From an uncultured bacterium (GTDB lineage: Bacteria; Patescibacteriota; Patescibacteriia; Magasanikbacterales; GWA2-37-8): 64,000 bases of DNA. The notes beneath the pieces are model-generated. The model searched no databases. It was given only the letters and a program-made list of their open reading frames with translations, and was not told where the DNA came from. A program made the translations under genes and the position numbers. Below, piece after piece: positions 23,657 through 41,707 of this stretch. Location of the stretch: positions 37,982 through 101,981 of the forward strand of contig CALCZC010000007.1 in NCBI GenBank assembly GCA_937903605.1. Direction: 5' to 3'. How positions within the stretch are numbered: the first letter of the stretch is position 1; each line of letters opens with the position of its first letter.

Positions 23657-23671
23657 GCGTCCAAAAATTCA

Positions 23672-23708: not shown

Positions 23709-23761
23709 TATCCTGTGAAATTCTAAATATTTTAATATTGTAATATTTTAATATTTTATTT

Positions 23762-23931: not shown

Positions 23932-23935
23932 AATT

Positions 23936-25141: not shown

Positions 25142-25223
25142 ATAGTTATTTTAGATAATTTATATACTACAATATATAATATATCAGACTATTTATATTT
25201 TGTCAATATAAAAAAGATATTTT

Positions 25224-25370
25224 TCTCTTGACAATCCCTCTGTTTTATGTCAATATACGTTGTTTAGTCTCAATATCTGCGCTAAAATAAAAAATATAAA
25301 TAGCTCTTTAATAATTTTTTAATGTGTTATAAACTTTTTGCAAGGAGAGTGTCATGAAAAAGAACGCTTT
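25224..25370 (+). repeat. About 147-bp promoter/leader repeat (copy 1), identical to 27489-27635
   Basis: TCTCTTGACAATCCCTCTGTTTTATGTCAATATACGTTG...TTTTTGCAAGGAGAGTGTCATGAAAAAGAAC is shared verbatim upstream of lipoprotein genes B and C and includes a TTGACA box. Confidence 0.7.
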
Positions 25371-25851
25371 CACGGTCACGGTTGTGGCCATCGCCTTTGC
25401 CTTCATTTTCATCGCCTGTGGCGGTGAGGAACCGGAACATCCGGATGACGATCAGAACAATGACGAGATTGCTGTTACCGACGATGAGCCGGACAACGAA
25501 CAGCCCGATGATGTTATCGATGAAGAAAATCCTGATGAAGATCAAGTAGTTATCGCAAATTGCGAAAAATTACTTGACATTGTCGGAGATTGGACTAGTA
25601 TCAATATTGAAGGGTATGATATTACGGTAACAGTCACACCCAAAGAAAAAAATTGTGAAGTAGCAGTGGAATGGACCAAAGGATATTCCGGAGTACAAAA
25701 ATGGTATGGATTAGAGCTCCCCCTGACTTATTGGGAAGAGGAAGCTTATAGAAACTACACCCTGAAAAAAACCGGAGAAAATCTGGTTCGAGAAGATACT
25801 CTTAAAACTGGAGGATTTGATAATGAGTGGGTCTTCAAAAAAATTCAGTAA
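25354..25851 (+). CDS. Acidic lipoprotein, paralog B
   Basis: MKKNAFTVTVVAIAFAFIFIACGGEEPEHPDDDQNNDEIAVTDDEPDNEQPDDVIDEENPDEDQ. Lipobox FIACGG. C-terminal ~90-aa domain with 2 Cys, similar to paralog C. Confidence 0.6.
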   Translation: MKKNAFTVTVVAIAFAFIFIACGGEEPEHPDDDQNNDEIAVTDDEPDNEQPDDVIDEENPDEDQVVIANCEKLLDIVGDWTSINIEGYDITVTVTPKEKNCEVAVEWTKGYSGVQKWYGLELPLTYWEEEAYRNYTLKKTGENLVREDTLKTGGFDNEWVFKKIQ

Positions 25852-25918
25852 TTCGGATACAGGAGTCCGAATTCTGAATTTAGAGGGTAGGAAAAAAAAC
25901 ACACCCTCAAAACTTCAA

Positions 25919-25946
25919 AGCCCAGGCATTGCCTGGGCTCTTTTTT
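25919..25946 (+). terminator. Rho-independent terminator after lipoprotein B
   Basis: AGCCCAGGC ATT GCCTGGGCT + TTTTTT. Confidence 0.6.
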
Positions 25947-26026
25947 ATCCAATTTTTCTTTTCTTAATATCTTCACCCCGTGAAATTCTAAATATTTTAA
26001 TATTGTAATATTTTAATATTTTATTT

Positions 26027-26263
26027 CTATTCTACTATCACACTCCCATTATATAGCACCCAGGCTTTATTTTGAGTTTGAACACAATCGTTTTGATTTA
26101 CGGAAATTTCAGCATAACACCCGTTCCCCGTATAATTAGGATTCATACCTGTATCACACCTTCCACTACACCACCCCCAATTATCCAACACCTGAACTCG
26201 CGGGAATCTGGCGTTAATAGGACCTGAATAATAAATACTTAAATAAAATATAATATTCTTCAC
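26027..26263 (-). CDS. Orphan Cys-rich C-terminal module ORF (78 aa, no signal peptide), paralogous to the giant-protein C-terminus
   Basis: MKNIIFYLSIYYSGPINARFPRVQVLDNWGWCSGRCDTGMNPNYTGNGCYAEISVNQNDCVQTQNKAWVLYNGSVIVE. The 3' 217 bp is identical to 23715-23931. Lies directly downstream of the ATPase gene. Confidence 0.45.
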   Translation of the reverse strand: MKNIIFYLSIYYSGPINARFPRVQVLDNWGWCSGRCDTGMNPNYTGNGCYAEISVNQNDCVQTQNKAWVLYNGSVIVE

Positions 26264-26271
26264 TACAAACT

Positions 26272-27396
26272 TTAAACCAAAAACTCTAAATAATTTTCTC
26301 TATTGATCACTTTGTATTCACTCTCTGAATATGTTTTTTTCCAGTCTTTTGGTGCGTCTTTTTTAAAATTTTGCGACCATTTTATTTCAAAGGCTCGAAG
26401 CTGTCCGTCTTTATCCTCAATCAAATCTATTTCTTGTCCGGCATATGTTCGCCAAAAATAAAGATTACCATAACTTTCTTTATATTCATCTTTTTTTATT
26501 TTTTCCATTACTACAAAATTTTCAAATAATCTTCCGACATCATCTCTATCATTTAAATCATTAAATTGTGAAATTACTGCATTTCTGATACCGTTGTCTA
26601 AAAAATAATATTTAGCTTTAGTCGTAATTTCTTGGCGTAAATTGCGAGAAAAACCACCCATCCTTTTTATTACAAAACCTTTTTCCAAAATATCCAGATA
26701 TTTAGCCACCGTTTTTACATCCATTTTTATCTGCGTTGCCAATTCACTCAAAGAAACCTCATTACCAACTTGAAAAGCCAATAACTTTAACAAATTTAAA
26801 AGCTGAAAAGAGCCACGAATTTTTTCAATATTCAAAACATCTTTTAATAAATAAGAAGATACCAATTCATTGAGTATCGCAATCTTTTCTTTTTTTGTTT
26901 TTGCTAAAAATACTTCTGGATAAGAGCCAAAAATCAAAAACTCTGTAAGCTTTTCTTGTAACTCTTGTTTATTATAAACATTCAATAACTCAATTTGAGA
27001 AAAAGGATATAAAATCAAAGTTTTCTTTCTTCCGGTAAGTGGTTCCCCTATTTTTTGTTCTAAATCAAAAGAAGACGACCCTGTAACCACCACATAAATC
27101 CCTGGAATTTGGTCAACTAAAATTTTCAACGCCATACCAATGTTTGGAATATTTTGTGCTTCGTCTATGGTAATCAATTCATACCCCTCTGCATAGGCTA
27201 AAATTTTGGAAAAATCTTGAGAAGCCAGTATTTCTTGGGTTTTGATATTATCCCCAGAATCAATTTTATATTTTAATTCAGTTTTAGCCAAAAAATCGTT
27301 TAAAAGAGTTGTTTTCCCTACTCTTCTAGGCCCATAAACAACTAAAACTTTGTTTTTTTGTTTAATATTAGCCAAATTATAATATCTTGGTAACAT
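26272..27396 (-). CDS. AAA+ ATPase of the AAA_14/DUF4143 family (divergent paralog of 23936-25141)
   Basis: Walker A VVYGPRRVGKTT, Walker B LITIDEAQ, C-terminal DUF4143-like region (YFLDNGIRN, WRTYAGQEIDLIE). Confidence 0.75.
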   Translation of the reverse strand: MLPRYYNLANIKQKNKVLVVYGPRRVGKTTLLNDFLAKTELKYKIDSGDNIKTQEILASQDFSKILAYAEGYELITIDEAQNIPNIGMALKILVDQIPGIYVVVTGSSSFDLEQKIGEPLTGRKKTLILYPFSQIELLNVYNKQELQEKLTEFLIFGSYPEVFLAKTKKEKIAILNELVSSYLLKDVLNIEKIRGSFQLLNLLKLLAFQVGNEVSLSELATQIKMDVKTVAKYLDILEKGFVIKRMGGFSRNLRQEITTKAKYYFLDNGIRNAVISQFNDLNDRDDVGRLFENFVVMEKIKKDEYKESYGNLYFWRTYAGQEIDLIEDKDGQLRAFEIKWSQNFKKDAPKDWKKTYSESEYKVINRENYLEFLV

Positions 27397-27488
27397 ATAT
27401 AATCATTACTTTTTAATTAAATATAAGGATTTCTATTCCTTATATTTATTATAAAATAAAGGAATAGAAATGTCAAGAGAGAAAAATG

Positions 27489-27635
27489 TCTCTTGACAAT
27501 CCCTCTGTTTTATGTCAATATACGTTGTTTAGTCTCAATATCTGCGCTAAAATAAAAAATATAAATAGCTCTTTAATAATTTTTTAATGTGTTATAAACT
27601 TTTTGCAAGGAGAGTGTCATGAAAAAGAACATCTT
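27489..27635 (+). repeat. About 147-bp promoter/leader repeat (copy 2)
   Basis: Identical to 25224-25370. Confidence 0.7.
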
Positions 27636-28143
27636 TTCGGTCACGGTTGTAACCATTGCCTTTACCTTCATTTTCATCGCCTGTGGCGGTGAGGAACCGA
27701 ACCTTCCTGATGATGATCAAGACAACGATGAAATCGTTGTTGTCGACGATGAGCCGGACAATGAACAACCCGATGATATCGTGGACGAAGAGCCGGTTGA
27801 CGATGACCAGCTTCCGCTGGAGGAAGTTTGCAAGAATTTCCTTGACTATGCCGGAAATTGGACTATCGTTGATATGAGTTTTACCGGTGATTTCAGTGTG
27901 ACCCTCTCAGTTGAAGGAGAGGAATGCAAGATATCTGTTGTTGGCACAACGGAATTGGCATGGATTTTTGCCTGGAAAGGGAAAGAGATGCCTCTTGCAT
28001 GCGCTGAATTTGCGCCTATGACTTATTTTTTTTACCTTGTGGGGAAAAATGAAGCTGGGAGAATGATCTGGATAAAAGGTTGGGATGAAGAAAGTTGTAA
28101 AGATGCTGAAGCGGCAATGGTTATAACGCTTGAGAAAAAATAG
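27619..28143 (+). CDS. Acidic lipoprotein, paralog C
   Basis: MKKNIFSVTVVTIAFTFIFIACGGEEPNLPDDDQDNDEIVVVDDEPDNEQPDDIVDEEPVDDDQ. C-terminal domain (CKNFLDYAGNWTIVDM...ECKISVVGT) resembles paralog B (CEKLLDIVGDWTSINI...NCEVAVEWT). Confidence 0.6.
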   Translation: MKKNIFSVTVVTIAFTFIFIACGGEEPNLPDDDQDNDEIVVVDDEPDNEQPDDIVDEEPVDDDQLPLEEVCKNFLDYAGNWTIVDMSFTGDFSVTLSVEGEECKISVVGTTELAWIFAWKGKEMPLACAEFAPMTYFFYLVGKNEAGRMIWIKGWDEESCKDAEAAMVITLEKK

Positions 28144-28177
28144 CAGGAGGTAAAAATGCACACAAATACAAGCTAAA

Positions 28178-28206
28178 AGCCAGGGTAAAACCCTGGCTCT
28201 TTTTTA
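28178..28206 (+). terminator. Rho-independent terminator after lipoprotein C
   Basis: AGCCAGGG TAAAA CCCTGGCT + TTTTTTT. Confidence 0.6.
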
Positions 28207-28256
28207 TTCTTTATATCAACTTTATATACTTAATACTAAATACTTAATACTTTATA

Positions 28257-31200
28257 CTATTCTACTATTACATTTCCATTATATTCTATCCAGGGATACA
28301 TTGGAGAAGCAGGATTACCATTTTCAGGTACACAATCGCTTGCCGCACCATCTGCATAACACCCATAATTCCTTGTTCCATAAGGATTATTCGTAGTGCA
28401 TCTCCCACTACACCACCCCCAATTATCCAAAACCTGGACTCGCGGAGTACTAGTACTTGGAGTACTGGTATAAGTAAAGTGAAATTCGTATGGCGTGTTT
28501 TTGCAACCAGTACCATCTGTACCGCTCTTATTTCCAAAACTTCCCGGATCATTGTCTCCTTCTACAAAAGTAACACAGCGAGATGTTTGAACTGTCATCT
28601 TACCTCCAGCTTTCTTTTTTGCATCATAAAATACACAGTCTTCAGCTTTGTTACAAGGAATTTGATATTGATAGTTTGCTGGTTCATATTCACACCATCC
28701 AACGTGAGTACAAAGCGGTTTGCGGTTAGCAATACTGCGAGCTTCCAAAACTATTGCGGGGTCTTCGGTTTTTGTTTGATACATTATCCGACGTACCGGC
28801 ATTTGTGCCGGGTCAGCCCAAGCATAAAATTCCAGAGCCACATCGGAATTAGGACTTACGGTACAATTACCACCACTTAACAATTCATCACTACAATTTG
28901 ACTTATTAACCACTACTGTATTTAAAGCAAATGTTTTACAATCAGGTTTTCCACCTGCGGCTTTATAAGCCTCGCAATCCGCAGATCCGGGAGATAGTTG
29001 TATAGGCGCAGCAATCACTGGTGGTTTGATATTAACGTCACAACTCGAAGCCCTTTCAGGACTGGCACAATCTATTGGGGATTTAAAAGTTAATTTGGTT
29101 GGCTCCTTGAATTCATTTACCGAGCTGGTTGGGAAGACCCTGACAAACATATTTTTTAACATTTCCCCATATTTAAGGTCTTCTAAACTATAAATTCCAA
29201 ATCTAGGAAAACTAATTTCTGTTTCTATGTCATTTCTATTTTCATAAGAAATCAAGGGACTACGTACACGTTCACGTTCATCCAAATAAAAACCAAATTC
29301 ATTTGTTTTTCCCCCATAATATGTAGTCAAGAAAGGATTTGTCAAATCGGGAAAGGTAAAGTAGCCTGTCATATCCAACTTCGGTTCCTTGATGCCCTGA
29401 AAATAAGATCTATTTAAAGTATACGAATTGGTAGCAAAACGAGTGCTAGCCGTTTCATCTTTTGGAATATTGTAAACCGTATATGTTTGATCAGGATATA
29501 GCGTATCACCCATATTGGTTTTTCCTTTGATTAATCTCCAAGTAACTGGTTTGGCGTCAATGGCAATTTCAGCTGCTTGGGCACTTGCCCCTGGAGGACG
29601 ACTATTTTTTGAAACTTTGGCAAACTCTGTACAAGAACCATCAGAAAAATGTATGACAAAGAAAAAATTAATACCTGCTGTATGACCAGCATTATCATGT
29701 AAATCCAGTTGCGCACCGAGTAATTGATCATCGCTCCCCCAAATAATCCTTGCACCAAAACCATCAAAATCGGTTTCATATGAATTAGCTTCAAATTTTG
29801 TAGGACTTGTCGGCAAACCAAAAGTATCTTCTGTTTCGCTATAAAAAAACATTTTTTTCTTGTCCTTTGATTCAAAATAATCATACTCCTCACCTTCTCC
29901 TTTATTAGCCATAACCTTAACTTCCCAAATAGTTTTTCCATCCTTCTTGTAAGTACTTTTTCTTATTAATTGTTCTCTGTTATTACCATCTTTTAGCGGT
30001 ACTCCGAGTTTAGATTGCTTAATACAAACATCTTCCAAATCGTTTTCGCAATCATAACTTTTTTTATCGGTCGAATTTTTTTCTTTGGGCGAACAATCTA
30101 CTCCCTCTGTCAAATAACAACCGGTAATCTCTTTATTTTCAAAAGTAATAATGTTGTTGTTGAAAAATTGTTCTGTTGCTATTGGATTATCTGTACCATT
30201 CGCGACTATCCAGCCGGGAGACTCTCCTATACCAAAAAAATTAACCACGCCCTTTTTCTTCAATTCTTGGTAAGTTTTCCCCAAAACTAAATCTATTTTG
30301 ACCACATCTGTTTTCTTGATTTTTCCATTATTGTAAAAAGACGGTTCTGTAGCAGGAGTAAAAACACCAGTGAGTCTATCTTGAAATTCGCTGACTTTAT
30401 TATTATCAAGACTTAATGGACAATATACTCGAGTGTTATCTTTTTTTAGACTTTCAATAACTCCTTGTCTTAGAACAGGAAAAACCTTATTATCCATATC
30501 ATTGAAACATTTCAGTATATGAGCATTCGGTGGTAAATTATAAACCATGGCCGAAGAAACGTAGTTATGGTATGTAATCGTCTGAGAAGCTTGAACCATC
30601 CAATCAACTACCACACCTAGAGCTGCCACCCAACCGAATATAGAACTTACCGAAGCTGCAACAGCTGCCGCAATAGAGGCTGCAACCGCTCCGCCTATGG
30701 CTCCCGCTATACCTGTAATAAGGGCTGTCGTTCCAGCTACCATGCCAAAAGTTAAGGGGAACGAGCCACCATCAACCCAAGCAACACCTACGGCCGCATA
30801 TTTTTCCTCGTTGTTTATTGCTAATGCAGCATCTGTCATTTCTTGTGTTGAAGTAGAAAAACAAACATATTCTTCATCAATCTCATCTACGAGATATACT
30901 TCGCCAATCTTTCCTCCTGGTGTAGTTGTACAATACCCAGCATCACTCATTTGTTGAGTACATTTCAATGTATCCACTTGCATGTATGGCTTTGTACATC
31001 CTCCCCTAGTTAAATAAGCTGTTTCACACACACATCCTTTTTCCCATACCACCTGTTTGCTTGTAAAAAACTTATCACTTTTTACCATATTTATAGAAAA
31101 AGCATTGGCACCAGCTCCACCCAGATCAACGCAATTATCATTATCACCACCTAGATCACAATATTTGAAAACATCCACAGTGGTTGTCCTGCTTTCAACT

Positions 31201-34200
31201 TCTACATTTTTGGCATTATCGATCTCTCCTGCGCTAACAGGGTTACCTGCGTTAAAATAAAATTCTAAATTTGGCAAGGGTTTCAATTTTAACGGCTGAT
31301 TGGCAATACACATATATCTATCCTTGGTATCATTTCCTTCATAAGCGGCTTTTTTATCAATTATCCAAATATCCGGCGCACCAGGAGGAACCTCCACCGG
31401 CCACCAAGTCAAACAAGGATTTTGTTCTGGTTCCCCATAAAGCTTATACTTGGGATTTTTTTCTACACAATAACCTTGCCAACCTCTAACCTCGTTTACA
31501 CTTTTTTTATTAGCGCAAATTCCTCCTCCACATTGTTCGCTATTAACACACGGTGTTCCTTCGGTTTCAAGCGAACCGCCAATACAAATACTTTGGGATT
31601 CCCTTTCTGTCCCTAAAGGAAAATAAACAAACTGGTTATTATATTCTACTTTTTTATAACTACAATCACAGGAATCCTCTTTATTTACAGTGGTACAAAT
31701 TTCTAAAGCCTTATTTTTAACAAGATATGCGTAAGCACTCCTAGAAACAGGTGTCACTCCTTCGATTGTTTCAATAATACCCCATGGATCAAATGGACTG
31801 TTTTCTTCCGGATAACCACGACAAGAAAGTTCACCGGAAGTCCTGAGTTTGCCACGATTTCTTATCATATTATTTTCTATTCCACCGGTAATAGGATATA
31901 TACACTCTCCACCTAAACACAAACCTTCTTTATTTAAACCACAAGACTTTGTCATGGTATTATCAAACTTGTTACATTCCTGAACATTTCCTTGACCAGG
32001 GACAAAAATATTTCCACTATTTTCCCAATGGACCAAGCGCGGTTCAAAATAAACACCTTCTTCTCCACTACTTTGCACCAAATTACCCACATTATATGGT
32101 TCAACATCGTTCATACGAATATACCTTACTCCCAAAGACGGAATCTGATAAGAATTGTGTAAAGTATAACCACTTAATTCCGGATCTGCCCAATTAACAC
32201 CTCTGCTTCTATAATTACTGGTGGTTATTTTTGAATTTCTCCAAGCCCAGCTATCCAAAGTAACATTTTGATCGCAATTTCCTTCTGAAAACATACCTGG
32301 GAGAGATTTACTACACAAACCAAAGCTATAGCATCTGGCTTTATCATCTTCTACTTGATAATTGTTACAATACATCCAAAGATTGCATTCGCGATCACGG
32401 GCAACTTTTACCAAAATATTGGCGTCTCTAGTCTCTGTTTCTACCGGTGGCACCGGAGCTCCTTTGACCGCGTTGGAAGCCTCATAAGTAGCTTCTGTGT
32501 TATATTTTTTATTTGGATTATTTACTTGATCAAGTAATACACAACCATAATTCACACTCGCGCCATTGGGACATTCTTCGTTTATTTTTTCACTCAATTT
32601 CCCATTATCAATGAGATAGTAAGAATTGGCAGCCGGAATACAAGTATCCCCTTGTTGAGAGCTGCAATCTTTATCGTATTCACATTTCATCCCTGATATG
32701 CTGCATTTTTTAACCGAAACATCGTTATGATCGTCAAATCTAGAACAACCATCTTGAGAAGAAGGGCACTCGCCTACATAGCCTCTGTAGCTTGTCGTAT
32801 TACCAAACGGTGGCAAAGAAATGCCAAGACCGGTAGCACAAACCTGTGTTTCATCATCTTTTAACACCCATTTACCGATTTTGGAATTACCAACGGTTTC
32901 CTCTTTATAAACACAAACTTTTTTACCAATGTTTTCCGGATCTTTAAAATAATAATTTCCTGAACCGGAACGCCAAACATCACACCCTTCAGCTTCTTTG
33001 GTACAGAGAATTCCACGATTATTACTACCTGACGATTCATAGCGAGTAGGATCGTTGATAATATAGGCATCTTCAAAAACGTATGTATTGGTGACATTTT
33101 TATATCCTTTACCCATCAAAGTACAGCCAACATTGTCTTTGTTACAAAAATTATTTACATTATCATTTTTTCTAATTGTCAAATAAATAGGCGAACTTGT
33201 TGGAGAAGTCTGTTTATAAACCAAAACCGTTGAAGTGGTAAACGCAGCACCGGTTAAAGAGCTTTGTCCGATACCGGAAGCATTTACATAACAACCGCCT
33301 TCGCCATCGGGCACAATACAATCATAATTTATACCGTTGATTTGAATAGTTGGTTTATTGCCAACCTCCGGTTTTTGTAAACCTAGATTAAATATCTGCC
33401 AAGTGGTGCTGGCGATATTACTACCTTTATTGTAAGTATCAACCAAACGAGTACAACCAATAGCCCCATCTCTGCAAAGATAACTGAAATTGTGTAAATA
33501 AATATTATCTTTACTAAGCGGAGATTTGTAAGCACGACAACCCAAGGCAGAACCTGGGAGGTTATCTTTTTGATCAAGATCGCATGATGCAGGAACCGAA
33601 AGTTTATCTTTTACCAGATAAACTGTGTCGTCTATACTTTTTAACGAAACATTATCCAAGAAGATAACTCCTCCAGCTCTATTATAATCTAAAAATATTA
33701 TATGAGCCCCTTCACCAGATGGCACACTCCCGCTAATAGCGGGATTACTTATTACGAATTCATAACGACGCCAATTGTCTGTCAAATTAACAGTTCCAAC
33801 ATTGTAGGTAAAGCCATTACCCAAAGTGATATCCCATCTTTTTGTACCTTTGGCTAAGAAAGAAAGTGAATAAACTCCGGTATTTTTTATATCCGTATTA
33901 TAATGTCTAAAACCTCGAGTAGCAGTACCGCTATTTGCCGCCACTGTAACTTTCAAAGATTTACCAAAATTGGATAACGTTTCTTCTGACAAAGAGATGG
34001 TAGTACCATTGTCAGCACTTTCGCTTGTCTTCCACCAGCCCCTTTTTGTATTGGAAACCATATTAGTCAAACCGATACCAGAGTCAAAACTATATGTAGG
34101 GAAAATATCTCTTATATTATTACCAGTGTTACCTTGATATTTGCGACATGATACTTTGTCTTGAGAACAAATTTTACTTTCAGCCCCACCAGCAACCACA

Positions 34201-37187
34201 ATATTTTGAGGTAAACCGTTGTAAATACAAAAACCTGTTGCCGTATCATAAAAAACAACATTGTCATTGCTGGCTGCGTTTTTCAAACCATCAAAACCAC
34301 CTAGACAATTTGTTTTGTTGCCGGAAATATCATAAAATTCAGATTTTACCGCTCTATACGGCGTACATTTATCCGATACTACCACTGTCTTGCTAAAATA
34401 AGCGTGATAAACTATACCTTGATCATCACGAAAAGCCCGACAATCTCCGGAAATGTCTGTTGCAGCAGTAGTAGAATTACAAGGAGCCATACCTGATTTT
34501 TCCGCTGGATCACGAAAATATTGAGCCGGCTGTTCACCGTTTTTGAGCAAAGTATAACTCTTGAGTTTATAACCTCCCCCTTCTCTTCCTTCGTAAGTAT
34601 AAAAATTCTTTTGTCTATTTTGATCCGGAGTCATGCACAGCCGCAAATCGCTGTAATATTCTGTCTGCACATTGCCGCCGGCAGTCACATTGAGATTTAC
34701 AAAAGCACTACAACCCTCTTCCTCCGAATCACATGTTGCTTCAACTTTGGGAATAATATAAACCAAGTCGTTGCCGTTACTATATTTGGTTTTCATTTCT
34801 TTATAAGAATTGTACCCTTCGCAAACAGATGGACATTCATCGTTCATAACAATTCCCCCGCTAACGTTTGCACGTCTAATAAACTTACCAACTATAGTTT
34901 CTTCTTTTGAACCTTCAAAAACAGCTAGAGGTAACTTGGTATACTGATTACAGCCTTCTTCTTCCGGTAAACAAATTCCGGCGTAATTAGCACATTCTGC
35001 CGGATTAACCGGTTTGATTTGATTAAGTTCTGATAAAGTTCTCGGCCATTGGATACCATTGTCCGGATTACTGTCTTTATCATAACAGCGTAAATAGTCC
35101 GGGGCTTTTTTGATAAATAATTCCTGACCAATTTCTTTGGTATTGGAAGCGTTGGTAATAACTGAAAATACTCGACTACAGCCGGCATTCTCGGCTTTGC
35201 ATGTCAAAACTTGATTATTAAAAAAATAAGAATAATTATTGCGAAAAGCACCGATTCCATCGGGAGTAGTGCTTGACAAAGCAGTAATATTTATTGTTGG
35301 AGAATATTTTTCTTGCCATTGTCCTACATTATTTTTATAAGCGGTGAAAAAGGTACAGCCAGCATTTTGTTCACTACACCAAGTATTGTCCAAGGTCTTC
35401 TGTAAATAAGTGACATTTTTACCTTTGGAAGAAGTAAATGATTTGCATGTATCATATTGACTGTCGCAATAATCAGCATTAAAGCGCCAAATATTTTTTT
35501 CTTCTAAACAATAACCATAAGCATTACAATTTCCTTTACTGTCATAGCCTACGCAACTCTGTAAATCCGCGCATTCTTCTTGTCTTATGGATATATCATC
35601 GTCAATTGTTCGTCCAGTATAAACAATCGCTTTACATCTAGTTTTTGGCATTTTCAATATCCAGTTGGGATTTACCATTTTATAATACTTAGAAGATGGA
35701 TTGTGAAAACCAGCCAAAACCTCAGAAAGTTTTGGTGGTGTTCCGGTTGCAGTTGCGGCTAAAATTTCCATACCTAACGGCCAGACTCTGGCTTTGCGCA
35801 ATACTTTGATATTGTCATAACAATAGGCTGATTCATAACATCTATCCCCTTTTGAAGCTATGCTTTCATCGGTTTGAAGACCTATTATTTGATGATCATC
35901 TATTTTTTCATATTGCAACGCTTCAGCAATTGTTAGAGGTCGCCCGTTCATATCAACCTCGCGTAAATAATCAGCAAATTTTTCATCCAAAATACAATTT
36001 TCCGCTGTATCACTACTATCATGATTACAAGTTCTAAAAAGAGCGAGTAAATCGTAATTATCATCGGATTTATTTTTAGCAATCAAAAGATCAGCAAAAA
36101 TCATTGCTGCTTCTTGTCGGAAAGTAGAAGCTCTAGCATCTTCATAATATCCTTCGGCAGTATATTTACTCTCTACACAAGTATCTATAGCTAGACCACC
36201 TATTTTCAAATAACTCGGGACACATTTGATTTTTCCTAAACCAAACGGGAACATCCCTTTATTAACAAAATTATCCACCATGGTACCGGCAAAAGTATTG
36301 ATGAAAGTGGCTGCAGCATTTTTCAGAACCTGGATACTTCCTTTTGTCAAAGCCGCTCCCATATAGACAGCGGTAGTTTGTTTTTCCGATTCGGCTTTTG
36401 CCGCCGGACCCGAACCGCGCAGTGTATCTCTATTAACTTCTGCCGGAGTCAAAACATCTTTGGAAATCAAAGAACTGAGAGCCTTGGTTCCTCCGTCTGA
36501 AGTACGCTCAGCTTTGGCTGCTTCCTCGGCTTTGAGAGTATAATCATCAATTTTACCTTTAGCTGCCAATCCTATACCCATATCAGTATCTGTAATATCC
36601 AAAGAAGCATTAAAAGTTTTGGAAAAATTTTCTCCATTGGCTCCCCAATATTTACTCTTGATGCCTTCAGCACTATAATTATCACGTAATTGTTGCCAGG
36701 TACAAGACGGTTTTTCTAAATCTGAATAACCCAAGTGCAAACCCATTTTCAAAGCCAAATCTAACTTCACATCCGGTAAGGCGCAAAGATTGAAGCCTAT
36801 ACCCTGTCCAAAACTATCTAATGCCGTTCCCAAAGCATCGCTGGCCACACCGGCAAAATAATTTCCTACGCTTTTCCTGTGAAACAACGGTGATTGCCCC
36901 CAATTTCCCGAAGCCAAAGAAACCGCCAAATCATAAGAAACTTTATTCAACATATAATCAACTCCTTTTACCACACCCAGCATTACCGCATCTAGAAGAT
37001 TATTCTTTATTTTGGTTAAGTTTTTTTCCAATTGTTCTCTGATAGTTTGTCCGGCTTGTTGGCTTTCAACCCCAGGAGCCGCGACCGTAAGCTGAGCTTT
37101 GGCTGAAGAAAAAGGTATAAGAGAAAAACAAAAAATAAGCAGAAGAAAAATTGCTATCAGCTTATTTATATTATTAAAAAATTTCAT
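28257..37187 (-). CDS. Giant secreted Cys-rich surface protein (2976 aa) with an internal Gly/Ala-rich two-TM hairpin and the conserved C-terminal NWGWC module
   Basis: Signal peptide MKFFNNINKLIAIFLLLIFCFSLIPFSSAKA. Many Cys throughout. Hydrophobic GSFPLTFGMVAGTTALITGIAGAIGGAVAASIAAAVAASVSSIFGWVAALGVVVDW (about nt 30600-30770). C-terminus PRVQVLDNWGWCSGRCTTNNPYGTRNYGCYADGAASDCVPENGNPASPMYPWIEYNGNVIVE. Confidence 0.7.
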   Translation of the reverse strand: MKFFNNINKLIAIFLLLIFCFSLIPFSSAKAQLTVAAPGVESQQAGQTIREQLEKNLTKIKNNLLDAVMLGVVKGVDYMLNKVSYDLAVSLASGNWGQSPLFHRKSVGNYFAGVASDALGTALDSFGQGIGFNLCALPDVKLDLALKMGLHLGYSDLEKPSCTWQQLRDNYSAEGIKSKYWGANGENFSKTFNASLDITDTDMGIGLAAKGKIDDYTLKAEEAAKAERTSDGGTKALSSLISKDVLTPAEVNRDTLRGSGPAAKAESEKQTTAVYMGAALTKGSIQVLKNAAATFINTFAGTMVDNFVNKGMFPFGLGKIKCVPSYLKIGGLAIDTCVESKYTAEGYYEDARASTFRQEAAMIFADLLIAKNKSDDNYDLLALFRTCNHDSSDTAENCILDEKFADYLREVDMNGRPLTIAEALQYEKIDDHQIIGLQTDESIASKGDRCYESAYCYDNIKVLRKARVWPLGMEILAATATGTPPKLSEVLAGFHNPSSKYYKMVNPNWILKMPKTRCKAIVYTGRTIDDDISIRQEECADLQSCVGYDSKGNCNAYGYCLEEKNIWRFNADYCDSQYDTCKSFTSSKGKNVTYLQKTLDNTWCSEQNAGCTFFTAYKNNVGQWQEKYSPTINITALSSTTPDGIGAFRNNYSYFFNNQVLTCKAENAGCSRVFSVITNASNTKEIGQELFIKKAPDYLRCYDKDSNPDNGIQWPRTLSELNQIKPVNPAECANYAGICLPEEEGCNQYTKLPLAVFEGSKEETIVGKFIRRANVSGGIVMNDECPSVCEGYNSYKEMKTKYSNGNDLVYIIPKVEATCDSEEEGCSAFVNLNVTAGGNVQTEYYSDLRLCMTPDQNRQKNFYTYEGREGGGYKLKSYTLLKNGEQPAQYFRDPAEKSGMAPCNSTTAATDISGDCRAFRDDQGIVYHAYFSKTVVVSDKCTPYRAVKSEFYDISGNKTNCLGGFDGLKNAASNDNVVFYDTATGFCIYNGLPQNIVVAGGAESKICSQDKVSCRKYQGNTGNNIRDIFPTYSFDSGIGLTNMVSNTKRGWWKTSESADNGTTISLSEETLSNFGKSLKVTVAANSGTATRGFRHYNTDIKNTGVYSLSFLAKGTKRWDITLGNGFTYNVGTVNLTDNWRRYEFVISNPAISGSVPSGEGAHIIFLDYNRAGGVIFLDNVSLKSIDDTVYLVKDKLSVPASCDLDQKDNLPGSALGCRAYKSPLSKDNIYLHNFSYLCRDGAIGCTRLVDTYNKGSNIASTTWQIFNLGLQKPEVGNKPTIQINGINYDCIVPDGEGGCYVNASGIGQSSLTGAAFTTSTVLVYKQTSPTSSPIYLTIRKNDNVNNFCNKDNVGCTLMGKGYKNVTNTYVFEDAYIINDPTRYESSGSNNRGILCTKEAEGCDVWRSGSGNYYFKDPENIGKKVCVYKEETVGNSKIGKWVLKDDETQVCATGLGISLPPFGNTTSYRGYVGECPSSQDGCSRFDDHNDVSVKKCSISGMKCEYDKDCSSQQGDTCIPAANSYYLIDNGKLSEKINEECPNGASVNYGCVLLDQVNNPNKKYNTEATYEASNAVKGAPVPPVETETRDANILVKVARDRECNLWMYCNNYQVEDDKARCYSFGLCSKSLPGMFSEGNCDQNVTLDSWAWRNSKITTSNYRSRGVNWADPELSGYTLHNSYQIPSLGVRYIRMNDVEPYNVGNLVQSSGEEGVYFEPRLVHWENSGNIFVPGQGNVQECNKFDNTMTKSCGLNKEGLCLGGECIYPITGGIENNMIRNRGKLRTSGELSCRGYPEENSPFDPWGIIETIEGVTPVSRSAYAYLVKNKALEICTTVNKEDSCDCSYKKVEYNNQFVYFPLGTERESQSICIGGSLETEGTPCVNSEQCGGGICANKKSVNEVRGWQGYCVEKNPKYKLYGEPEQNPCLTWWPVEVPPGAPDIWIIDKKAAYEGNDTKDRYMCIANQPLKLKPLPNLEFYFNAGNPVSAGEIDNAKNVEVESRTTTVDVFKYCDLGGDNDNCVDLGGAGANAFSINMVKSDKFFTSKQVVWEKGCVCETAYLTRGGCTKPYMQVDTLKCTQQMSDAGYCTTTPGGKIGEVYLVDEIDEEYVCFSTSTQEMTDAALAINNEEKYAAVGVAWVDGGSFPLTFGMVAGTTALITGIAGAIGGAVAASIAAAVAASVSSIFGWVAALGVVVDWMVQASQTITYHNYVSSAMVYNLPPNAHILKCFNDMDNKVFPVLRQGVIESLKKDNTRVYCPLSLDNNKVSEFQDRLTGVFTPATEPSFYNNGKIKKTDVVKIDLVLGKTYQELKKKGVVNFFGIGESPGWIVANGTDNPIATEQFFNNNIITFENKEITGCYLTEGVDCSPKEKNSTDKKSYDCENDLEDVCIKQSKLGVPLKDGNNREQLIRKSTYKKDGKTIWEVKVMANKGEGEEYDYFESKDKKKMFFYSETEDTFGLPTSPTKFEANSYETDFDGFGARIIWGSDDQLLGAQLDLHDNAGHTAGINFFFVIHFSDGSCTEFAKVSKNSRPPGASAQAAEIAIDAKPVTWRLIKGKTNMGDTLYPDQTYTVYNIPKDETASTRFATNSYTLNRSYFQGIKEPKLDMTGYFTFPDLTNPFLTTYYGGKTNEFGFYLDERERVRSPLISYENRNDIETEISFPRFGIYSLEDLKYGEMLKNMFVRVFPTSSVNEFKEPTKLTFKSPIDCASPERASSCDVNIKPPVIAAPIQLSPGSADCEAYKAAGGKPDCKTFALNTVVVNKSNCSDELLSGGNCTVSPNSDVALEFYAWADPAQMPVRRIMYQTKTEDPAIVLEARSIANRKPLCTHVGWCEYEPANYQYQIPCNKAEDCVFYDAKKKAGGKMTVQTSRCVTFVEGDNDPGSFGNKSGTDGTGCKNTPYEFHFTYTSTPSTSTPRVQVLDNWGWCSGRCTTNNPYGTRNYGCYADGAASDCVPENGNPASPMYPWIEYNGNVIVE

Positions 37188-37284: not shown

Positions 37285-38268
37285 TTATATTCCCCATTCA
37301 AACTTCTCCGTCGCTTCATTGTAATAATACAGTTCTTTGATTTTGGAATCTCCATATTTATCCGCGGTTTTTTCTAATACTTCAAAGACGCCTTCTGTGT
37401 CTATAATCTCACCTGTTTCATCTTTGGGAAAAAATTGAAGTATTTTGGATTTGATTTCAGAGTAAGATGGTGGGTTTTGAGTCATAGGTTTTGTCTCAGT
37501 TTTCGGAAGGTTGTTTTCCGACTTTTTTTCAATTTTTGGTTTTATTTTTTTTATCAACGGATCGATTTTTTCTTGAAGTAAAATATGATATTCTTCTACG
37601 GTTTTTAAACTATCGGCAACTTCCGGGTGAAACGCTTTGTCCAACTCTTTGAGCACCATCTCTTTTTCCACGGTCAAAATATTTTTGATAAATATTATAT
37701 AATTTTGTAAAATTTTATCTCTATCAAAAACATAATATTTATCCAAAAGTTCAATGTCGGGACAGAAAATAACAGGCTTGAGTAAAATTTTCAACCCCTC
37801 TACATCGCTTTCATTTTTGATTTTATCTTTACAAATATCCAAAATATCGGAAAAAAAATAGTTTTTACTTCCCATCTTGGCAATTATGGCTTTGGAGTCT
37901 CGTAGCGCTTGTTTGGTTTTTTCATATACTTCTACTTTTTCTATCAAATCATAAACCGGAGAAGATAAAAACATCAATAAATCAAACCATGTATCATTAC
38001 CGAGAAGCAAAGCGATATGGAAATGGTTAGAAAAAATCTTTATAAACTCCTCTGTTTTATAACCACCGAGTTTTTGCCAAACCAAAAAAGTATACCAACG
38101 TTGATAACTGGCCAAATCTTCAAATTGCGTTTGCGCGTCAACTTGCACCTTCCCCAACATTGTTTCCAAGAAAATTTCCTTATCTTCAGGGTTATTCAAA
38201 AATTCGTCGAATTTTTTCTCAATCTCCGCAATACCTTCTTCAGTTAATTTGTTTGGATCGTCAATCAT
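37285..38268 (-). CDS. Hypothetical soluble protein (327 aa), co-oriented between the multi-TM protein and the giant protein
   Basis: Uninterrupted ORF with no TM and no recognisable motifs. The 17-nt gap to the upstream gene suggests an operon. Confidence 0.45.
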   Translation of the reverse strand: MIDDPNKLTEEGIAEIEKKFDEFLNNPEDKEIFLETMLGKVQVDAQTQFEDLASYQRWYTFLVWQKLGGYKTEEFIKIFSNHFHIALLLGNDTWFDLLMFLSSPVYDLIEKVEVYEKTKQALRDSKAIIAKMGSKNYFFSDILDICKDKIKNESDVEGLKILLKPVIFCPDIELLDKYYVFDRDKILQNYIIFIKNILTVEKEMVLKELDKAFHPEVADSLKTVEEYHILLQEKIDPLIKKIKPKIEKKSENNLPKTETKPMTQNPPSYSEIKSKILQFFPKDETGEIIDTEGVFEVLEKTADKYGDSKIKELYYYNEATEKFEWGI

Positions 38269-38285: not shown

Positions 38286-41200
38286 TTATGATCTTTTAGC
38301 TTTATCTATTTTGTCTGTCAAGATTTTAATTCTTTGTTCTAGGACCTTTTTACCATCGCCTTCTTTTACTGATTTTAAGAGAGTATTAACGAGTTTTTCA
38401 AATTGATTAACATTACTTTTATTGACAGCGGCTTCGTTTATAGAGGCAAAGATAGTGGTAAAATCTTTATTACCCAGAGCCTGACCACTTTTTCCTTTAA
38501 ATATAGAATCTACATATTTTAAAACTTCATCCCCTATACCACACATTATACCGTCTGCATTTACACTCCCCAACGTAGTTAATTTATCGGCTTTTCCTCT
38601 TTCTATAGCGTAAGAAAAATCATTACTCGGTTTTTCTCGCCAAGCATATATAAGTTTACCGGTGGCTCTATCAATTTCCTCTGATATTAAACCAACACCG
38701 GTAAAATCACCGCTCATAGAGGCCTTTTTAAAATTATTAGCAAGTGTACCCAAAAAAGATTGGTATTCTCCTTCGCTAGAAAATCTATCTCTCAGCTTAT
38801 CTTTTCCTTCTTCTTCCTTACCTTTCTCAACATAGCTTCCTAACAGTTGTGTGAGTACTGCCCTATCCCTGTTTTCCATATTTATTTCTCCTTCTTTCGC
38901 AAAAAACCCGGTTTCATTTAAACAGGCCACTCTAGTATCACGAGAATTTTCTCCACCAACACTGGCATTATATGAAGCCAAAGCTGCCTTTCCTCTGTAT
39001 AATTTAGCAAGCTCCTTTTTTAAATCTTTATAGCCTTGAGTGTTAATATCTGTCGCTTTACTTATCGCCATTTCAACTTTTGCTATCGCTTTAACTTGTC
39101 CTTTTTCTGCTGCTTCTAGTTGTTTAGGGGTCAGGTTACTTAAAATTTCAGCATCTTTTTTAATAGCAAGATTATTAGCTGACGCTTCCATGGCATCCCC
39201 ACGAACTGGGTCTCCTGAACGTCTATAAGCGTCTCCTGTGTCCTTAAGAGCAATTTGTTGCTTCTTTATTTCTTCGTCGCTTAATTCTATACCTTTACCC
39301 GCTATATCTCTTATCCTGGCAAATTCTTTATCTCCTGCAGCAATATCTTTATCCACTTTTTCCTTCCCTTCAATTCTAACATTTCCGGCTTGGGCTTTAA
39401 GACTTTCTATTTCGACTTCCAATTTTTCAGCTCCTTCTATTTTATCTATAGATAATTTTTCTAACCCTTTTAATTCGTCTTTATAATCTCTTAAAAAACC
39501 TTCACTCATTGCTCTACCTTCGTCGGTTATGGTAGGATCTTTTAAAAAATCTTCTAACTCTTTAATTTGCTCTTTCTTTTTTCCTATCTGATTGTCAATA
39601 TTATTATATTCTTCTTGGACACCGGACAATTCTCCTTCTTTTTTTCCTGCTTCCTCCTCGAGTCTTTTGGCTTCTTTTTCTATTGGAACCATTCCTTCGG
39701 TTCTTTGTTTTTCTATTCCTTCTCTCCACTTTTTTTCTGACTCGTCTTGTTCGCCTTTGACTAACTGTTCTCGCTGTTTGTTGATTTGATTCGCCTCACG
39801 TTGTTTGGTGTTTAATTCATCAATAATTATTTTATGAGCATCATTTTGTCTAAATTTACCTTCAACTTCTTGAAGGATAGCCGGCATACCGGCTTCTTTT
39901 AATTTTTCTCTTTGCTGTAAATTATATTTTAGCAATTCTGTTTCTTTTTTAGCTTCAAAAGTAGCTAGAGTACCGACTTGACTATCAAAAATTCCTTTTC
40001 TTGTGTCTAATTGTTTTTTTCTAGCCGCTCTCAATTTTTCACGTTCCATATATTTATCCGCTCTATTGGCCCAGAAACCTTTCTCGCCTGTTAATTTTTC
40101 TTTATCGTAACTTCTTTCCAAAAAAGCCAGTCCCCTTAGTTGAGCCATATCTTTTAGATCACCCCCTATATTAACGGCTTCGTTTTTGATTCCGCCCCAA
40201 GTTTTTTTAACTCCCCAACCAAGAGCAGCAACGCCGGACGCTGTCATCGCTACTTTCTTGGCAGTGCTCATCGCCGAGCTCAAAGCTCCGGCACCACGTA
40301 CGCCAAGTTGTTGAGTTTTTTCAACACCAACCATGAGTAAAGCTATGGCAATAGCAAAGGAAGCCATAGTCGGCCATTCTAACATTTCATTGATGCCAGA
40401 GCTAGCTCCCTCAACAGAAAAAACTTGTGTTACAGCACCTTCGTCTCTGGTAAAATTTTTATTTTCAAATTCTTCATTATATATTTCTCCGCTACCGGCG
40501 ACAGCAAACGATAACCAAAAGAAAAAAGCTAAAATCGGCCCGGCTAAAACGTGGTTGTTAAATTCTTTCCACCACTCAGTAGCATATTTTTGGGTTGCTG
40601 GTAAAACACTACTGATAAAAGCTACAGGAGATAATATGATAAGCACCCACAATACCACCACCCTGTACAACATGATAACCATATAGGCTCCCAAAACAAA
40701 AAAACTGATAACACTAAAAAATACAGTTGCTACTGCAGCTATCAAATAACTGATATCATTTATTTTTTCAGCTTCAGCTTGTGTTGATAACAACCAACCT
40801 TTTTGCAATTTCAAGGCATTTATAACATTACCTCCAGCAGTAGCCGCAAAACCATTGACAAAAGTCATGGTAAAAACCTGAGCCGCATCTATAATTACCC
40901 CGCAAATCAAGCGGCTAAAATTTACCAATACGGCAGCAAAAACTAATTTAACTAAAAGTTTTTTCCATTCATATTGTTCCAAACCAAGTACTGTGCCAAA
41001 AGCAATAACCAATAAAATCAAAACAAAAAACATATTTACCACATCACGCACTAATACCCATCCTAAAATAACTGTTTTTGAATTTATAAAATCATTATAA
41101 CTGGCAATAGTAATAAAAAAATTGGTAGCAAATATAGTCAAGCCGATAAACAGCTTGGCCATAGCCCAACAAATCAAAGTGATAAGCGAACCAATTCCCG

Positions 41201-41363
41201 CCGCAACCGTATCTGTTACCCAACCAAAAGCAGCGCTAGCTTCATTAGTGTTGATTACAAAAAATAATAAAAAGAATAACAAAAACAATGAGAGAAACTT
41301 TCTTCTATCCCCTCTTGTTTTAAAATTCAAAATATTCTTAATTTTTCCCAAAAAAGACGACAT
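38286..41363 (-). CDS. Multi-pass membrane protein (signal peptide + about 6-7 TM) with an about 700-aa charged coiled-coil C-terminal region. VirB6/TrbL-like architecture (hypothesis only)
   Basis: N-terminal hydrophobic helices (GIGSLITLICWAMAKLFIGLTIFATNFFITIA, FVLILLVIAFGTVLGL, LVFAAVLVNFSRLICGVIIDAAQVF, YLIAAVATVFFSVISFFVLGAYMVIMLYRVVVLWVLIILSPVAFI, GPILAFFFWLSFAVAG). Then E/K/R-rich heptad repeats to the C-terminus. Confidence 0.55.
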   Translation of the reverse strand: MSSFLGKIKNILNFKTRGDRRKFLSLFLLFFLLFFVINTNEASAAFGWVTDTVAAGIGSLITLICWAMAKLFIGLTIFATNFFITIASYNDFINSKTVILGWVLVRDVVNMFFVLILLVIAFGTVLGLEQYEWKKLLVKLVFAAVLVNFSRLICGVIIDAAQVFTMTFVNGFAATAGGNVINALKLQKGWLLSTQAEAEKINDISYLIAAVATVFFSVISFFVLGAYMVIMLYRVVVLWVLIILSPVAFISSVLPATQKYATEWWKEFNNHVLAGPILAFFFWLSFAVAGSGEIYNEEFENKNFTRDEGAVTQVFSVEGASSGINEMLEWPTMASFAIAIALLMVGVEKTQQLGVRGAGALSSAMSTAKKVAMTASGVAALGWGVKKTWGGIKNEAVNIGGDLKDMAQLRGLAFLERSYDKEKLTGEKGFWANRADKYMEREKLRAARKKQLDTRKGIFDSQVGTLATFEAKKETELLKYNLQQREKLKEAGMPAILQEVEGKFRQNDAHKIIIDELNTKQREANQINKQREQLVKGEQDESEKKWREGIEKQRTEGMVPIEKEAKRLEEEAGKKEGELSGVQEEYNNIDNQIGKKKEQIKELEDFLKDPTITDEGRAMSEGFLRDYKDELKGLEKLSIDKIEGAEKLEVEIESLKAQAGNVRIEGKEKVDKDIAAGDKEFARIRDIAGKGIELSDEEIKKQQIALKDTGDAYRRSGDPVRGDAMEASANNLAIKKDAEILSNLTPKQLEAAEKGQVKAIAKVEMAISKATDINTQGYKDLKKELAKLYRGKAALASYNASVGGENSRDTRVACLNETGFFAKEGEINMENRDRAVLTQLLGSYVEKGKEEEGKDKLRDRFSSEGEYQSFLGTLANNFKKASMSGDFTGVGLISEEIDRATGKLIYAWREKPSNDFSYAIERGKADKLTTLGSVNADGIMCGIGDEVLKYVDSIFKGKSGQALGNKDFTTIFASINEAAVNKSNVNQFEKLVNTLLKSVKEGDGKKVLEQRIKILTDKIDKAKRS

Positions 41364-41645
41364 GGTATATGAAAATTAGTCGCCTAAACCACTTCCAAAA
41401 ACAAAATTTTGAAAGTCATTTTGGACAAATATATTATAACACCTTTTGGCTAAAATTACAAAATAAAAACTATCCACAGGGCACTAGAAGCTTCGCTTGC
41501 GTACCCTGCAGGCAGGCCATAAATTATTATAATAGTTAGAAAATAAAAAAATTACAGAGATTTAAATTTATTTAAAAATCAAAATAGCAAAATTAATACT
41601 ACTTAATACAAGATATTTTTGGCTAATATCAGCAAAAATAGACTA

Positions 41646-41674: not shown

Positions 41675-41707
41675 ACTTTGTTCTTTAACAATTTAAAGGA
41701 GTTTAAC

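Follow-up and report, generated by a model that had tools for sequence, protein, structure and literature searches.

The locus described here raises the question of what a candidate phyla radiation (CPR) bacterium might do with a very large, Cys-rich exported protein, and with which other proteins of the cell it might act. The window, a stretch of 64,000 nucleotides (nt) at positions 37,982 to 101,981 of contig CALCZC010000007.1 (assembly GCA_937903605.1, Magasanikbacterales lineage GWA2-37-8), is housekeeping chromosome of about 35% G+C with genes for ValRS, TyrRS, enolase, two cofactor-independent phosphoglycerate mutases, PGK, GAPDH and ScpAB, and it encodes a protein of 2,976 amino acids (aa), hereafter the giant. 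The initial annotation had described this protein as secreted and had pointed to giant surface proteins of CPR bacteria. An exported protein of a CPR bacterium was borne out, the relatives being named Candidatus (Ca.) Magasanikbacteria. What had been omitted is its gene's membership in a conserved cluster for the Patescibacterial type IV secretion system (T4SS). Based on the comparison of gene order and gene content among relatives, the giant is held here, with slightly better than even confidence, to be a Sec-exported surface or host-contact component of this system, and its family to be a part of the chromosomal T4SS cluster of Ca. Magasanikbacteria and close relatives.

An exported, Cys-rich protein family

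The signal peptide of the giant (Table 1) was called by inspection together with a calculation of hydrophobicity and insertion free energy (dG), the latter with a published translocon-based predictor whose parameters had internal controls as their sole check (signal peptides, -2.6 to -3.3 kcal/mol; transmembrane (TM) helices of the neighbouring protein, -3.9 to +0.3 kcal/mol). A basic n-region, MKFFNNINK, is followed by a 17-residue h-region, LIAIFLLLIFCFSLIPF, and by the c-region SSAKA with cleavage before QL, and the peptide reaches a dG of -2.6 kcal/mol (-2.55). The P-A-x-A-Q cleavage motif of this AxA-type signal peptide is near-invariant among homologues. The earlier call of a single open reading frame (ORF) with a signal peptide was upheld, and the ORF is intact. 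The exported product has a predicted size of about 330 kDa. The very high Cys content noted at the outset was likewise found, with 107 Cys or 3.6% of residues in the giant against 0.72% across the 42 other ORFs of the window (5-fold; binomial P ~3e-40). The mature protein retains 106 of them, an even number, the remaining one lying within the signal peptide.

Homologues were collected by a scan of one genome per species, from which the best 80 of 286 relatives were fetched. With members in no fewer than 286 species-level genomes, the family comes almost entirely from Ca. Magasanikbacteria/Magasanikiibacteriota and metagenome-assembled genomes named "Patescibacteria group"; many of these records are titled "uncultured Gammaproteobacteria", which their gene content and similarity to Magasanikbacteria records suggest to be a labelling artefact. 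A second homology search with a 9-sequence profile yielded zero additional members. The family has one copy per locus and a fixed architecture, seen in 58 complete homologues, of signal peptide, N-terminal domain, Cys-rich core, variable region and Cys-rich C-terminal domain. The N-terminal domain is matched by blastp in 85 of 85 sources (84 fetched loci and the window itself), and the C-terminal domain, which in the giant of the window ends in EYNGNVIVE, in 59 sources including the window. Most Cys of the core are identical in 88-100% of the 58 homologues (mostly 95-100%) at an overall identity of only ~30%, the exceptions being C961 (72%) and four Cys at aa 1495-1516 (5-7%) within a clade-specific insert. 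This pattern is as expected for structural disulfides of an extracytoplasmic protein, and the giant is probably Sec-exported, disulfide-stapled and extracellular.

Domain databases recognised little of this architecture. PDB profile searches were negative for both terminal domains (36 sequences for the N-terminal one, 35 for the C-terminal one), and Pfam and NCBIfam scans of the giant and of its two co-oriented neighbours (a 327-aa protein and a VirB6-like protein, see below) gave no match at E <= 0.1 except a stray one to Med30. The AlphaFold2 (AF2) model of aa 1-1200 has a mean predicted local distance difference test score (pLDDT) of 41 and is usable only at aa 400-510 and in a carbohydrate-binding module (CBM) region described below, the helices of the N-terminal domain being of low confidence; that of aa 1901-2976 (mean pLDDT 34.5) was excluded from the fold search.

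The hypervariable region that follows the core (aa 1961-2500) is, by comparison, an orphan. Alignment occupancy across it is 0.05-0.4, a phmmer search with aa 1961-2520 against 1.84 billion representative proteins gave 0 matches, and two scans of JGI metagenome contigs recovered the contig of homologue P0001 (locus L002) alone. A diversity-generating retroelement as the source of this variability was ruled out: none of the window ORFs scanned (37 of 45, those of 150 aa or more) encodes a reverse transcriptase domain, and no direct repeats within the window link the variable region to another site as a template/variable pair. As a separate observation, genes of the 23S_rRNA_IVP family (PF05635, an Avd-like four-helix bundle) adjoin the giant in locus L001 (149-499 and 9580-9954), and another lies beside other large genes just past the left edge of the window (L087:11356-11739).

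Linkage to type IV secretion genes

Gene neighbourhoods were counted over the 78 usable loci of the genome scan; VirB4 sits 8-10 kb downstream of the giant, so that the counts for PrgI, TraC-like and VirB4 genes are limited by flank length. The canonical order is TSP3-repeat protein, giant, often a convergent lipoprotein, VirB6-like protein, 327-aa family, 372-aa family, PrgI, TraC/TrsD-like protein, VirB4 and a 197-aa protein. The TSP3 gene lies directly upstream of the giant in 68 of 78 loci, and a VirB6-like gene follows downstream on the same strand in 39 of the 50 loci with a flank of at least 5 kb. With flanks of at least 9.5 kb (27 loci), PrgI was found in the neighbourhood 18 times, a TraC-like gene 17 times and VirB4 13 times. 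In two loci of more distant relatives (L003 with homologue P0006 and L004 with P0009), precomputed Pfam tags mark PrgI (VirB3), a TraC-like protein and DUF87/AAA_10/P-loop_TraG (VirB4) a few genes 3' of the giant, and the arrangement is retained around P0009, a homologue 23% identical to the giant of the window.

The TSP3 partner is a protein of 200-275 aa that is anchored by a TM segment at its N-terminus and carries Ca-binding repeats of the TSP3-like D-x-D-x-D type, one C-x6-C pair and a tail rich in acidic residues (for example L003:9325-9987 and L004:9177-10004), and its gene at times overlaps the start of the giant (by 4 nt in L004). Its hidden Markov model, run against six-frame translations, detected the positive control L013 and found the partner absent in the window, in the left extension of the window and in L001, L002, L005 and L007. 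These belong to a rearranged clade (window, L001/L006, L002, L005 and L007) in which the VirB6-like and 327-aa genes are placed upstream of the giant and PrgI/VirB4 are not nearby.

In the window, the VirB6-like protein of 1,025 aa, the 327-aa protein and the giant are encoded in this order on one strand, with intergenic gaps of 17 and 97 nt, in what is apparently a three-gene operon. The 1,025-aa protein has 6-8 TM segments within aa 20-350 (dG -3.9 to +0.3 kcal/mol) and is homologous (E 1e-102 and 5e-46) to the membrane proteins that precede PrgI/TraC/VirB4 in L003 and L004. The TrbL/VirB6 models of Pfam (PF04610, TrbL_3/4) left it and four of its orthologues unmatched even at E <= 1. Among relatives found through its N-terminal domain, P0053 passes the TrbL gathering score (28.0 bits, cut-off 25.9), P0040 comes near it with 25.5 bits, P0042 matches TrbL_4, and PF19590 is precomputed in 8 of 49. 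By this transitive homology to Pfam TrbL, the neighbour is predicted to be a divergent, extended VirB6/TrbL-type protein. Like the extended type described in PMC12857230, it combines an N-terminal polytopic domain with a large hydrophilic C-terminal extension, its orthologues adjoin VirB3/VirB4 in L003, L004, L013, L017 and other loci, and its relatives reach Pfam TrbL; it differs in matching no TrbL/VirB6 model itself and in sitting apart from VirB3/VirB4, as its orthologues do in L001, L002 and L007. Homologues of the 327-aa gene come after the VirB6-like gene inside the T4SS cluster in other genomes.

Alternatively, the giant could serve the envelope or adhesion on its own, as an S-layer-like protein or a fibre for host attachment in general, without functional ties to the T4SS and with a neighbourhood that reflects inherited synteny in Magasanikbacteria. 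Large Cys-rich exported proteins of other CPR bacteria have no reported T4SS link (PMC4736985, PMC8080830), the window contains no VirB3/VirB4 genes, and no VirB6-like neighbour is detectable in 11 of the 50 loci whose downstream flank measures 5 kb or more. This alternative is nevertheless regarded as unlikely. The linkage of the giant to the VirB6-like and 327-aa genes is kept through the rearrangement and in the 23%-identical homologue, with differing outer flanking genes, which favours functional coupling over mere synteny, and in the window the three genes are co-oriented with short gaps.

A predicted sugar-binding domain

The only recognisable domain of the giant is, as judged from profiles and predicted structure, a diverged CBM4/9-type jelly roll with a predicted sugar-binding role. 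The family profile matched, at aa ~1030-1190, the CBM4 structure 1gui in a PDB profile search (E 6e-5). In the AF2 model this is the only confidently modelled part (pLDDT 65-85) and adopts a jelly-roll fold, whose best Foldseek matches are CBM4, CBM16, CBM29 and BT_4411 (E values between 3e-7 and 5e-5, with TM-scores to the target of 0.5-0.68). Of 16 relatives, 6 match Pfam CBM_4_9 (PF02018) in the corresponding segment (E 8e-8 at best), the protein of the window itself being unmatched at E <= 0.1. No peptidase, Ig, PKD or toxin module was found among 16 diverse family members, and of the Ig-like, lectin or peptidase modules that the initial annotation had thought worth looking for, none turned up beyond the CBM4/9-like domain. 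The role in host attachment proposed there thus stays plausible on account of the sugar-binding jelly roll, with no Ig, other lectin or peptidase module to add to it.

Table 1 Features of the giant gene and its surroundings (positions in the window; residues of the giant where applicable).
Feature	Position	Strand	Residues	Description
Lipoprotein paralogues of the array	27619-28143, 25354-25851, 23030-23656			N-terminus and acidic linker conserved, C-terminal domains diverged, 43-50% identity
Orphan tail copies	26027-26209, 23762-23932	-		Last ~59 codons of a giant-type gene, in two units of the array
AAA_14/DUF4143 ATPase genes of the array	26272-27396, 23936-25141			In two units, 32% identity to each other
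Convergent lipoprotein gene	27619..28143	+		174 aa, lipobox FIAC, polyacidic linker, 4-Cys domain
Bidirectional terminator-like hairpin	28175..28201			12-bp stem, between giant stop and convergent lipoprotein gene
Giant gene	28257..37187	-	1-2976	ATG start, 2,976 aa and stop codon, intact ORF
Conserved C-terminal Cys-rich domain	28260..29030	-	2720-2976	Motifs FYAWADPAQMP and VQVLDNWGWC
Orphan hypervariable region	29688..31307	-	1961-2500	blastp matches in window and L002/P0001 only
Gly/Ala/Val-rich hydrophobic segment	30588..30752	-	2146-2200	Kyte-Doolittle >1.5; candidate helical hairpin
Conserved Cys-rich core	31308..35627	-	521-1960	At least 11 C-x6-C staples, typically x-G-C-[ST]-x-aromatic
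CBM4/9-like beta-jelly-roll domain	33618..34100	-	~1030-1190	Predicted from PDB profile, AF2, Foldseek and Pfam in relatives
N-terminal conserved domain	35628..37094	-	32-520	Cys-poor, Ala-rich, mostly helical by prediction; best-conserved part of the family
Signal peptide	37095..37187	-	1-31	Cleavage predicted after AKA
327-aa gene	37285..38268	-		Soluble, no TM segment, no family match; between VirB6-like gene and giant
VirB6/TrbL-type "extended" divergent protein (predicted)	38286..41363	-		1,025 aa, polytopic membrane part followed by long C-terminal coiled-coil region
Promoter-like site	41433..41461	-		10/12 consensus match with extended TG, upstream of the three-gene operon; consensus match only

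Proposed role at the cell surface

Combined with the gene linkage, these features suggest the following course of events. The giant would be exported by Sec, its signal peptide cleaved, and the mature protein oxidised into a rigid structure with up to 53 disulfides. It would then be kept at the surface beside the membrane complex of the T4SS (extended VirB6-like protein, VirB3/PrgI, TrsD/TraC-like protein and VirB4), where it may act as the adhesin or host-contact arm needed by monoderm T4SSs, the CBM4/9-like domain binding a glycan of the host envelope and the hypervariable region (aa 1960-2500) differing between lineages. Surface retention probably relies on partner proteins, candidates for which are the upstream TSP3-repeat membrane protein and the downstream lipoprotein, the latter possibly as a tether for the C-terminus of the giant.

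According to published work on these secretion systems, the majority of Patescibacterial VirB4 proteins fall into one clade, which is akin to the MPF-FATA class of monoderms, and the clusters comprise TrsD, VirB3/PrgI, VirB6 and often VirB2-like pilins, with relaxases nearly absent and a PrgB-like adhesin undetected (Quinonero-Coronel et al., PMC12102498). In Southlakia epibionticum, the only species tested, the T4SS is essential, its function being not known (PMC10633639, PMC11665869, PMC12857230). The closest functional parallels are perhaps the adhesins of monoderm T4SSs such as PrgB of pCF10, which like the giant are large Sec-exported surface proteins encoded with T4SS genes, contain a module that binds polymers or glycans and are presumed to act in contacts between cells. 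The giant, in contrast, has no sequence or domain similarity to PrgB and no LPXTG/sortase anchor, is 2-3 times larger and is built of Cys-stapled modules. As neither the LPXTG anchor nor a glucan-binding or antigen I/II-like domain of the PrgB type was found in it, the resemblance is functional only.

Large Cys-rich exported proteins with a proposed role in attachment are known from other CPR bacteria (PMC4736985, PMC8080830). Those of Peribacteria (PMC4736985) and the "giant proteins" of Vampirococcus (PMC8080830) exceed 1,000 aa, carry a signal peptide, contain several per cent Cys and vary between strains, a likeness by description; they are not reported to be T4SS-linked, in contrast to the giant family with its fixed architecture and single copy per locus. 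As kinds, then, both large Cys-rich CPR surface proteins and T4SS-associated surface proteins are already known, and what is new, as gene order indicates, is an unannotated giant family built into the T4SS locus of Magasanikbacteria. The T4SS papers cited here, looked through by term searches in PMC12102498 and PMC11665869 and by targeted look-ups in the rest, make no mention of a giant Cys-rich protein in a T4SS cluster, and a search of the Magasanikbacteria literature returned nothing on a giant Cys-rich T4SS-linked protein. The Patescibacterial T4SS is widespread and published surveys list no adhesin for it (PMC12102498, PMC10633639, PMC11665869). A conserved, exported, unannotated family linked to the T4SS cluster in hundreds of Magasanikbacteria genomes would therefore be a concrete candidate for host contact, with three possible partners in the TSP3 membrane protein encoded upstream, the VirB6-like protein of the extended type and the lipoprotein encoded downstream.

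Several observations weigh against a role of the giant in the T4SS or against parts of the mechanism outlined above. The tie to the secretion system is purely genomic, the function being deduced from sequence and gene order, and part of the co-location could be synteny inherited within one phylum-level lineage. No PrgI, TraC-like or VirB4 gene is present in the window or in the 10 kb past its left edge, and of the 29 loci that have 8 kb or more of flank downstream, 7 show no VirB6-like gene. Apart from the diverged CBM, no adhesin domain and no LPXTG anchor were found in the giant, and the AF2 models are unusable outside the CBM (mean pLDDT 34 and 41). In the case of the hydrophobic hairpin discussed below, the putative cytoplasmic turn has no basic residue and the hydrophobicity is borderline, ~60 homologues function without it, and its presence shows no clean correlation with loss of the TSP3 partner, since L001, L005 and L007 have neither.

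The hydrophobic Gly/Ala/Val segment

The initial annotation had singled out a hydrophobic Gly/Ala segment of ~55 aa roughly two-thirds along the protein. Such a stretch is indeed present at aa 2146-2200, that is at 72-74% of the length, with the sequence noted first at aa 2151-2194. The longest run free of D, E, K and R in the giant is 55 aa (2140-2194), and when the mature sequence was shuffled 2,000 times, a run this long or longer came up only 3 times. A tandem DNA repeat as its source was ruled out, as no such repeat underlies it. Of ~60 complete homologues, just three have a hydrophobic stretch inside their C-terminal third, namely the protein of the window, P0001 of L002 and that of L035. 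The segment of P0001 (aa 2143-2201) is 46% identical to that of the window with hydrophobicity and lack of charge kept, and the L035 insert is 34 aa long and unrelated in sequence. All three follow directly after a conserved W-x-P-[VI] motif inside the variable region. The segment is thus best described, from this distribution, as a lineage-specific insert of two known lineages and no feature of the family; because almost all members are without it, it cannot account for surface retention across the family, and being confined in this way the hairpin is of lesser importance.

The topology of the segment was considered from its flanks. Of the conserved Cys in the variable region, 8 precede the segment and 6 follow, even numbers on both sides, and the C-terminal domain is common to relatives that have no internal hydrophobic segment. 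With Cys pairs on both flanks and the C-terminal domain shared with segment-free relatives, both flanks must, on this reasoning, lie on the outer side of the membrane, and the segment would be either a hairpin or re-entrant element or not membrane-embedded. A single-span TM helix was ruled out, as it would place in the cytoplasm a Cys-rich C-terminal domain that is extracellular in relatives. Calculated dG values are ~0.0 kcal/mol for aa 2154-2184 and +1.2 kcal/mol for aa 2174-2198 in the window, +1.35 and -1.6 kcal/mol for the first and second halves in P0001, and -0.9 kcal/mol for the single, Pro-broken segment of L035. No K or R occurs at aa 2140-2225, the turn being GGAVAAS in the window and PVVSAGAS in P0001, so that the positive-inside rule does not hold. 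AF2 places helices at 2147-2161, 2166-2180 and 2188-2199 with pLDDT below 50, in a model that is unusable. Of the two-helix hairpin or fusion-peptide-like element first proposed, the topology with both flanks outside alone fits; with borderline dG and no positive charge in the turn, a classical Sec hairpin is not assured. A helical hairpin with both flanks outside is still the most likely form.

What such a hairpin would do can be read in three ways. An accessory anchor in the producer's own membrane comes close to an even chance, because at least one half of the segment is hydrophobic enough for retention by the translocon. Somewhat more doubtful is export with the rest of the protein followed by insertion into the host membrane, a possibility raised because the segment is borderline in hydrophobicity, bears no charge, has many small residues and falls within the variable region. 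That it is a buried, non-membrane element is unlikely.

Taken further, the segment could be a host-directed insertion element resembling a fusion peptide or toxin hairpin, shielded until contact and then opening a bridge or pore at the T4SS contact site. Stretches of ~40-60 uncharged, small-residue-rich aa in a large secreted protein are also found in the hairpins of TcdA/TcdB, colicins and diphtheria toxin and in Gly/Ala-rich viral fusion peptides, which stay soluble until the target membrane is met. Borderline hydrophobicity with no positive-inside signal, a Gly/Ala-rich composition with many small-xxx-small motifs, the position inside the hypervariable region and the presence in L035, at the corresponding site, of another hydrophobic insert of unrelated sequence would all agree with such a function, as would a weak, non-significant match to the TcdA/TcdB pore region. 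The likeness of the giant to these proteins is, however, compositional only, with the best Pfam score far under threshold, no significant similarity to fusion or pore-forming families, and no shielding domain or trigger evident; amphipathic shielding helices are not predicted in the flanks, where the model is unusable. Moreover, at least one half reaches a dG of 0 or below in P0001 and L035 and would probably be retained by the Sec translocon, and most family members have no such element. A host-directed insertion element of this kind is accordingly judged quite unlikely.

Known families with similar segments were also considered. No pilin family came up when aa 2101-2260 and the corresponding parts of P0001 and L035 were scanned against Pfam at E <= 10, which rejects a VirB2/TrbC-type pilin (PF04956, PF18895). 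A TcdA/TcdB pore region (TcdA_TcdB_pore, E 0.056, 12.2 bits against a cut-off of 27) and a holin (E 0.05-1.2) were rejected as compositional matches.

Displaced tails and lipoproteins at the 3' end of the gene

Directly 3' of the giant stop codon lies a three-unit array of 5.4 kb (window 23000-28450) with a spacing of 2,265 nt. Each unit has a lipoprotein gene; an ATPase gene is present in two of the units, and an orphan copy of the tail of a giant-type gene likewise in two (Table 1). The orphan tails start exactly at a conserved PRVQVLDNWGWC motif and are 99% identical to each other, with only ~58% protein identity to the resident tail. At the position of the array, L001 and L007 each carry just one lipoprotein, an orthologue of the convergent one in the window, and lack the ATPase; across the family a convergent lipoprotein-like ORF lies within 500 nt of the giant stop in about 27-30 of 51 loci. 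Orphan C-terminal fragments of 150-190 aa with the DNWGWC motif were also found at L022:22721-23293, L050:18606-19070 and L056:~9670-9900, located 2-7 kb downstream of complete giants with unrelated genes between.

Because of these orphan tail copies and fragments, the 3' end of the giant gene looks like a hot spot of recombination or insertion that displaces cassettes of tail plus lipoprotein. The array would also agree with a tail and a lipoprotein that may bind each other and vary together. As in the orphan C-terminal/immunity cassettes of CdiA/Rhs, a motif (PRVQVLDNWGWC in the giant) marks the start of a variable C-terminal tail, and displaced copies of motif plus tail lie downstream, each adjoining a paralogous small gene. 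In contrast to CdiA/Rhs, the tail of the giant is only ~46 aa long and has no toxin domain, the small gene is a convergent lipoprotein gene, and the array is interleaved with DUF4143 ATPase genes. The DNA encoding VQVLDNWGWC (window 28399-28445, ~40-48 nt), a motif present in many loci, is 88-100% identical over 32-48 nt between lineages whose giants are ~30% identical; this may reflect codon constraint, or a recombination core for the cassette array.

These elements can be joined into a more elaborate scheme, in which the giant would be an extracellular T4SS arm, made rigid by disulfides, that docks on a host glycan through its CBM and, in this lineage, also drives the Gly/Ala hairpin into the host membrane as a conduit for exchange, while the orphan tail and lipoprotein cassettes would form a recombination system that swaps the part by which the arm is fastened to the cell. 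As a whole this scheme is improbable. The proximity of the repeat array, which starts just past the 3' end of the giant, is the sole reason for caution about the gene itself, and the reading of the ORF as an assembly or annotation artefact (several fused genes or a frameshifted pseudogene), raised in the initial annotation as mis-assembly, is very improbable, since 8 contigs of several independent assemblies (among them ENA ERZ724087 NODE_28, 301 kb, and Logan SRR3330210) encode exactly this 2,976-aa product, the giant is collinear with a 2,978-aa homologue (59% identity) and with ~58 complete homologues of 2,500-3,200 aa, and the invariant Cys pattern spans the entire protein.

Other features of the window

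The products of three divergently transcribed small genes (41678-42154, 42173-42799 and 44599-45219) combine a soluble part at the N-terminus with TM segments at the C-terminus. Two of these proteins are paralogous in their N-termini; the three genes are neighbours of the operon in L001 and L007 too and have no family match. The two phosphoglycerate mutase genes (46620-48215 and 48226-49788) are tandem paralogues, both of which are found in L002 as well.

Past the left edge of the window, two exported-looking proteins of 1,142 and 1,081 aa (L087:12081-15509 and 16923-20168) are Cys-poor (0.2-0.3%), have no Pfam match and are unrelated to the T4SS queries. Finally, two 71-nt direct repeats (14295-14365 and 14423-14493) of 83% identity and 128 nt apart have a tRNA-like sequence (...GGTAGTGCGTCTACCA) and are probably, judging by this likeness, adjacent tRNA genes on the minus strand.

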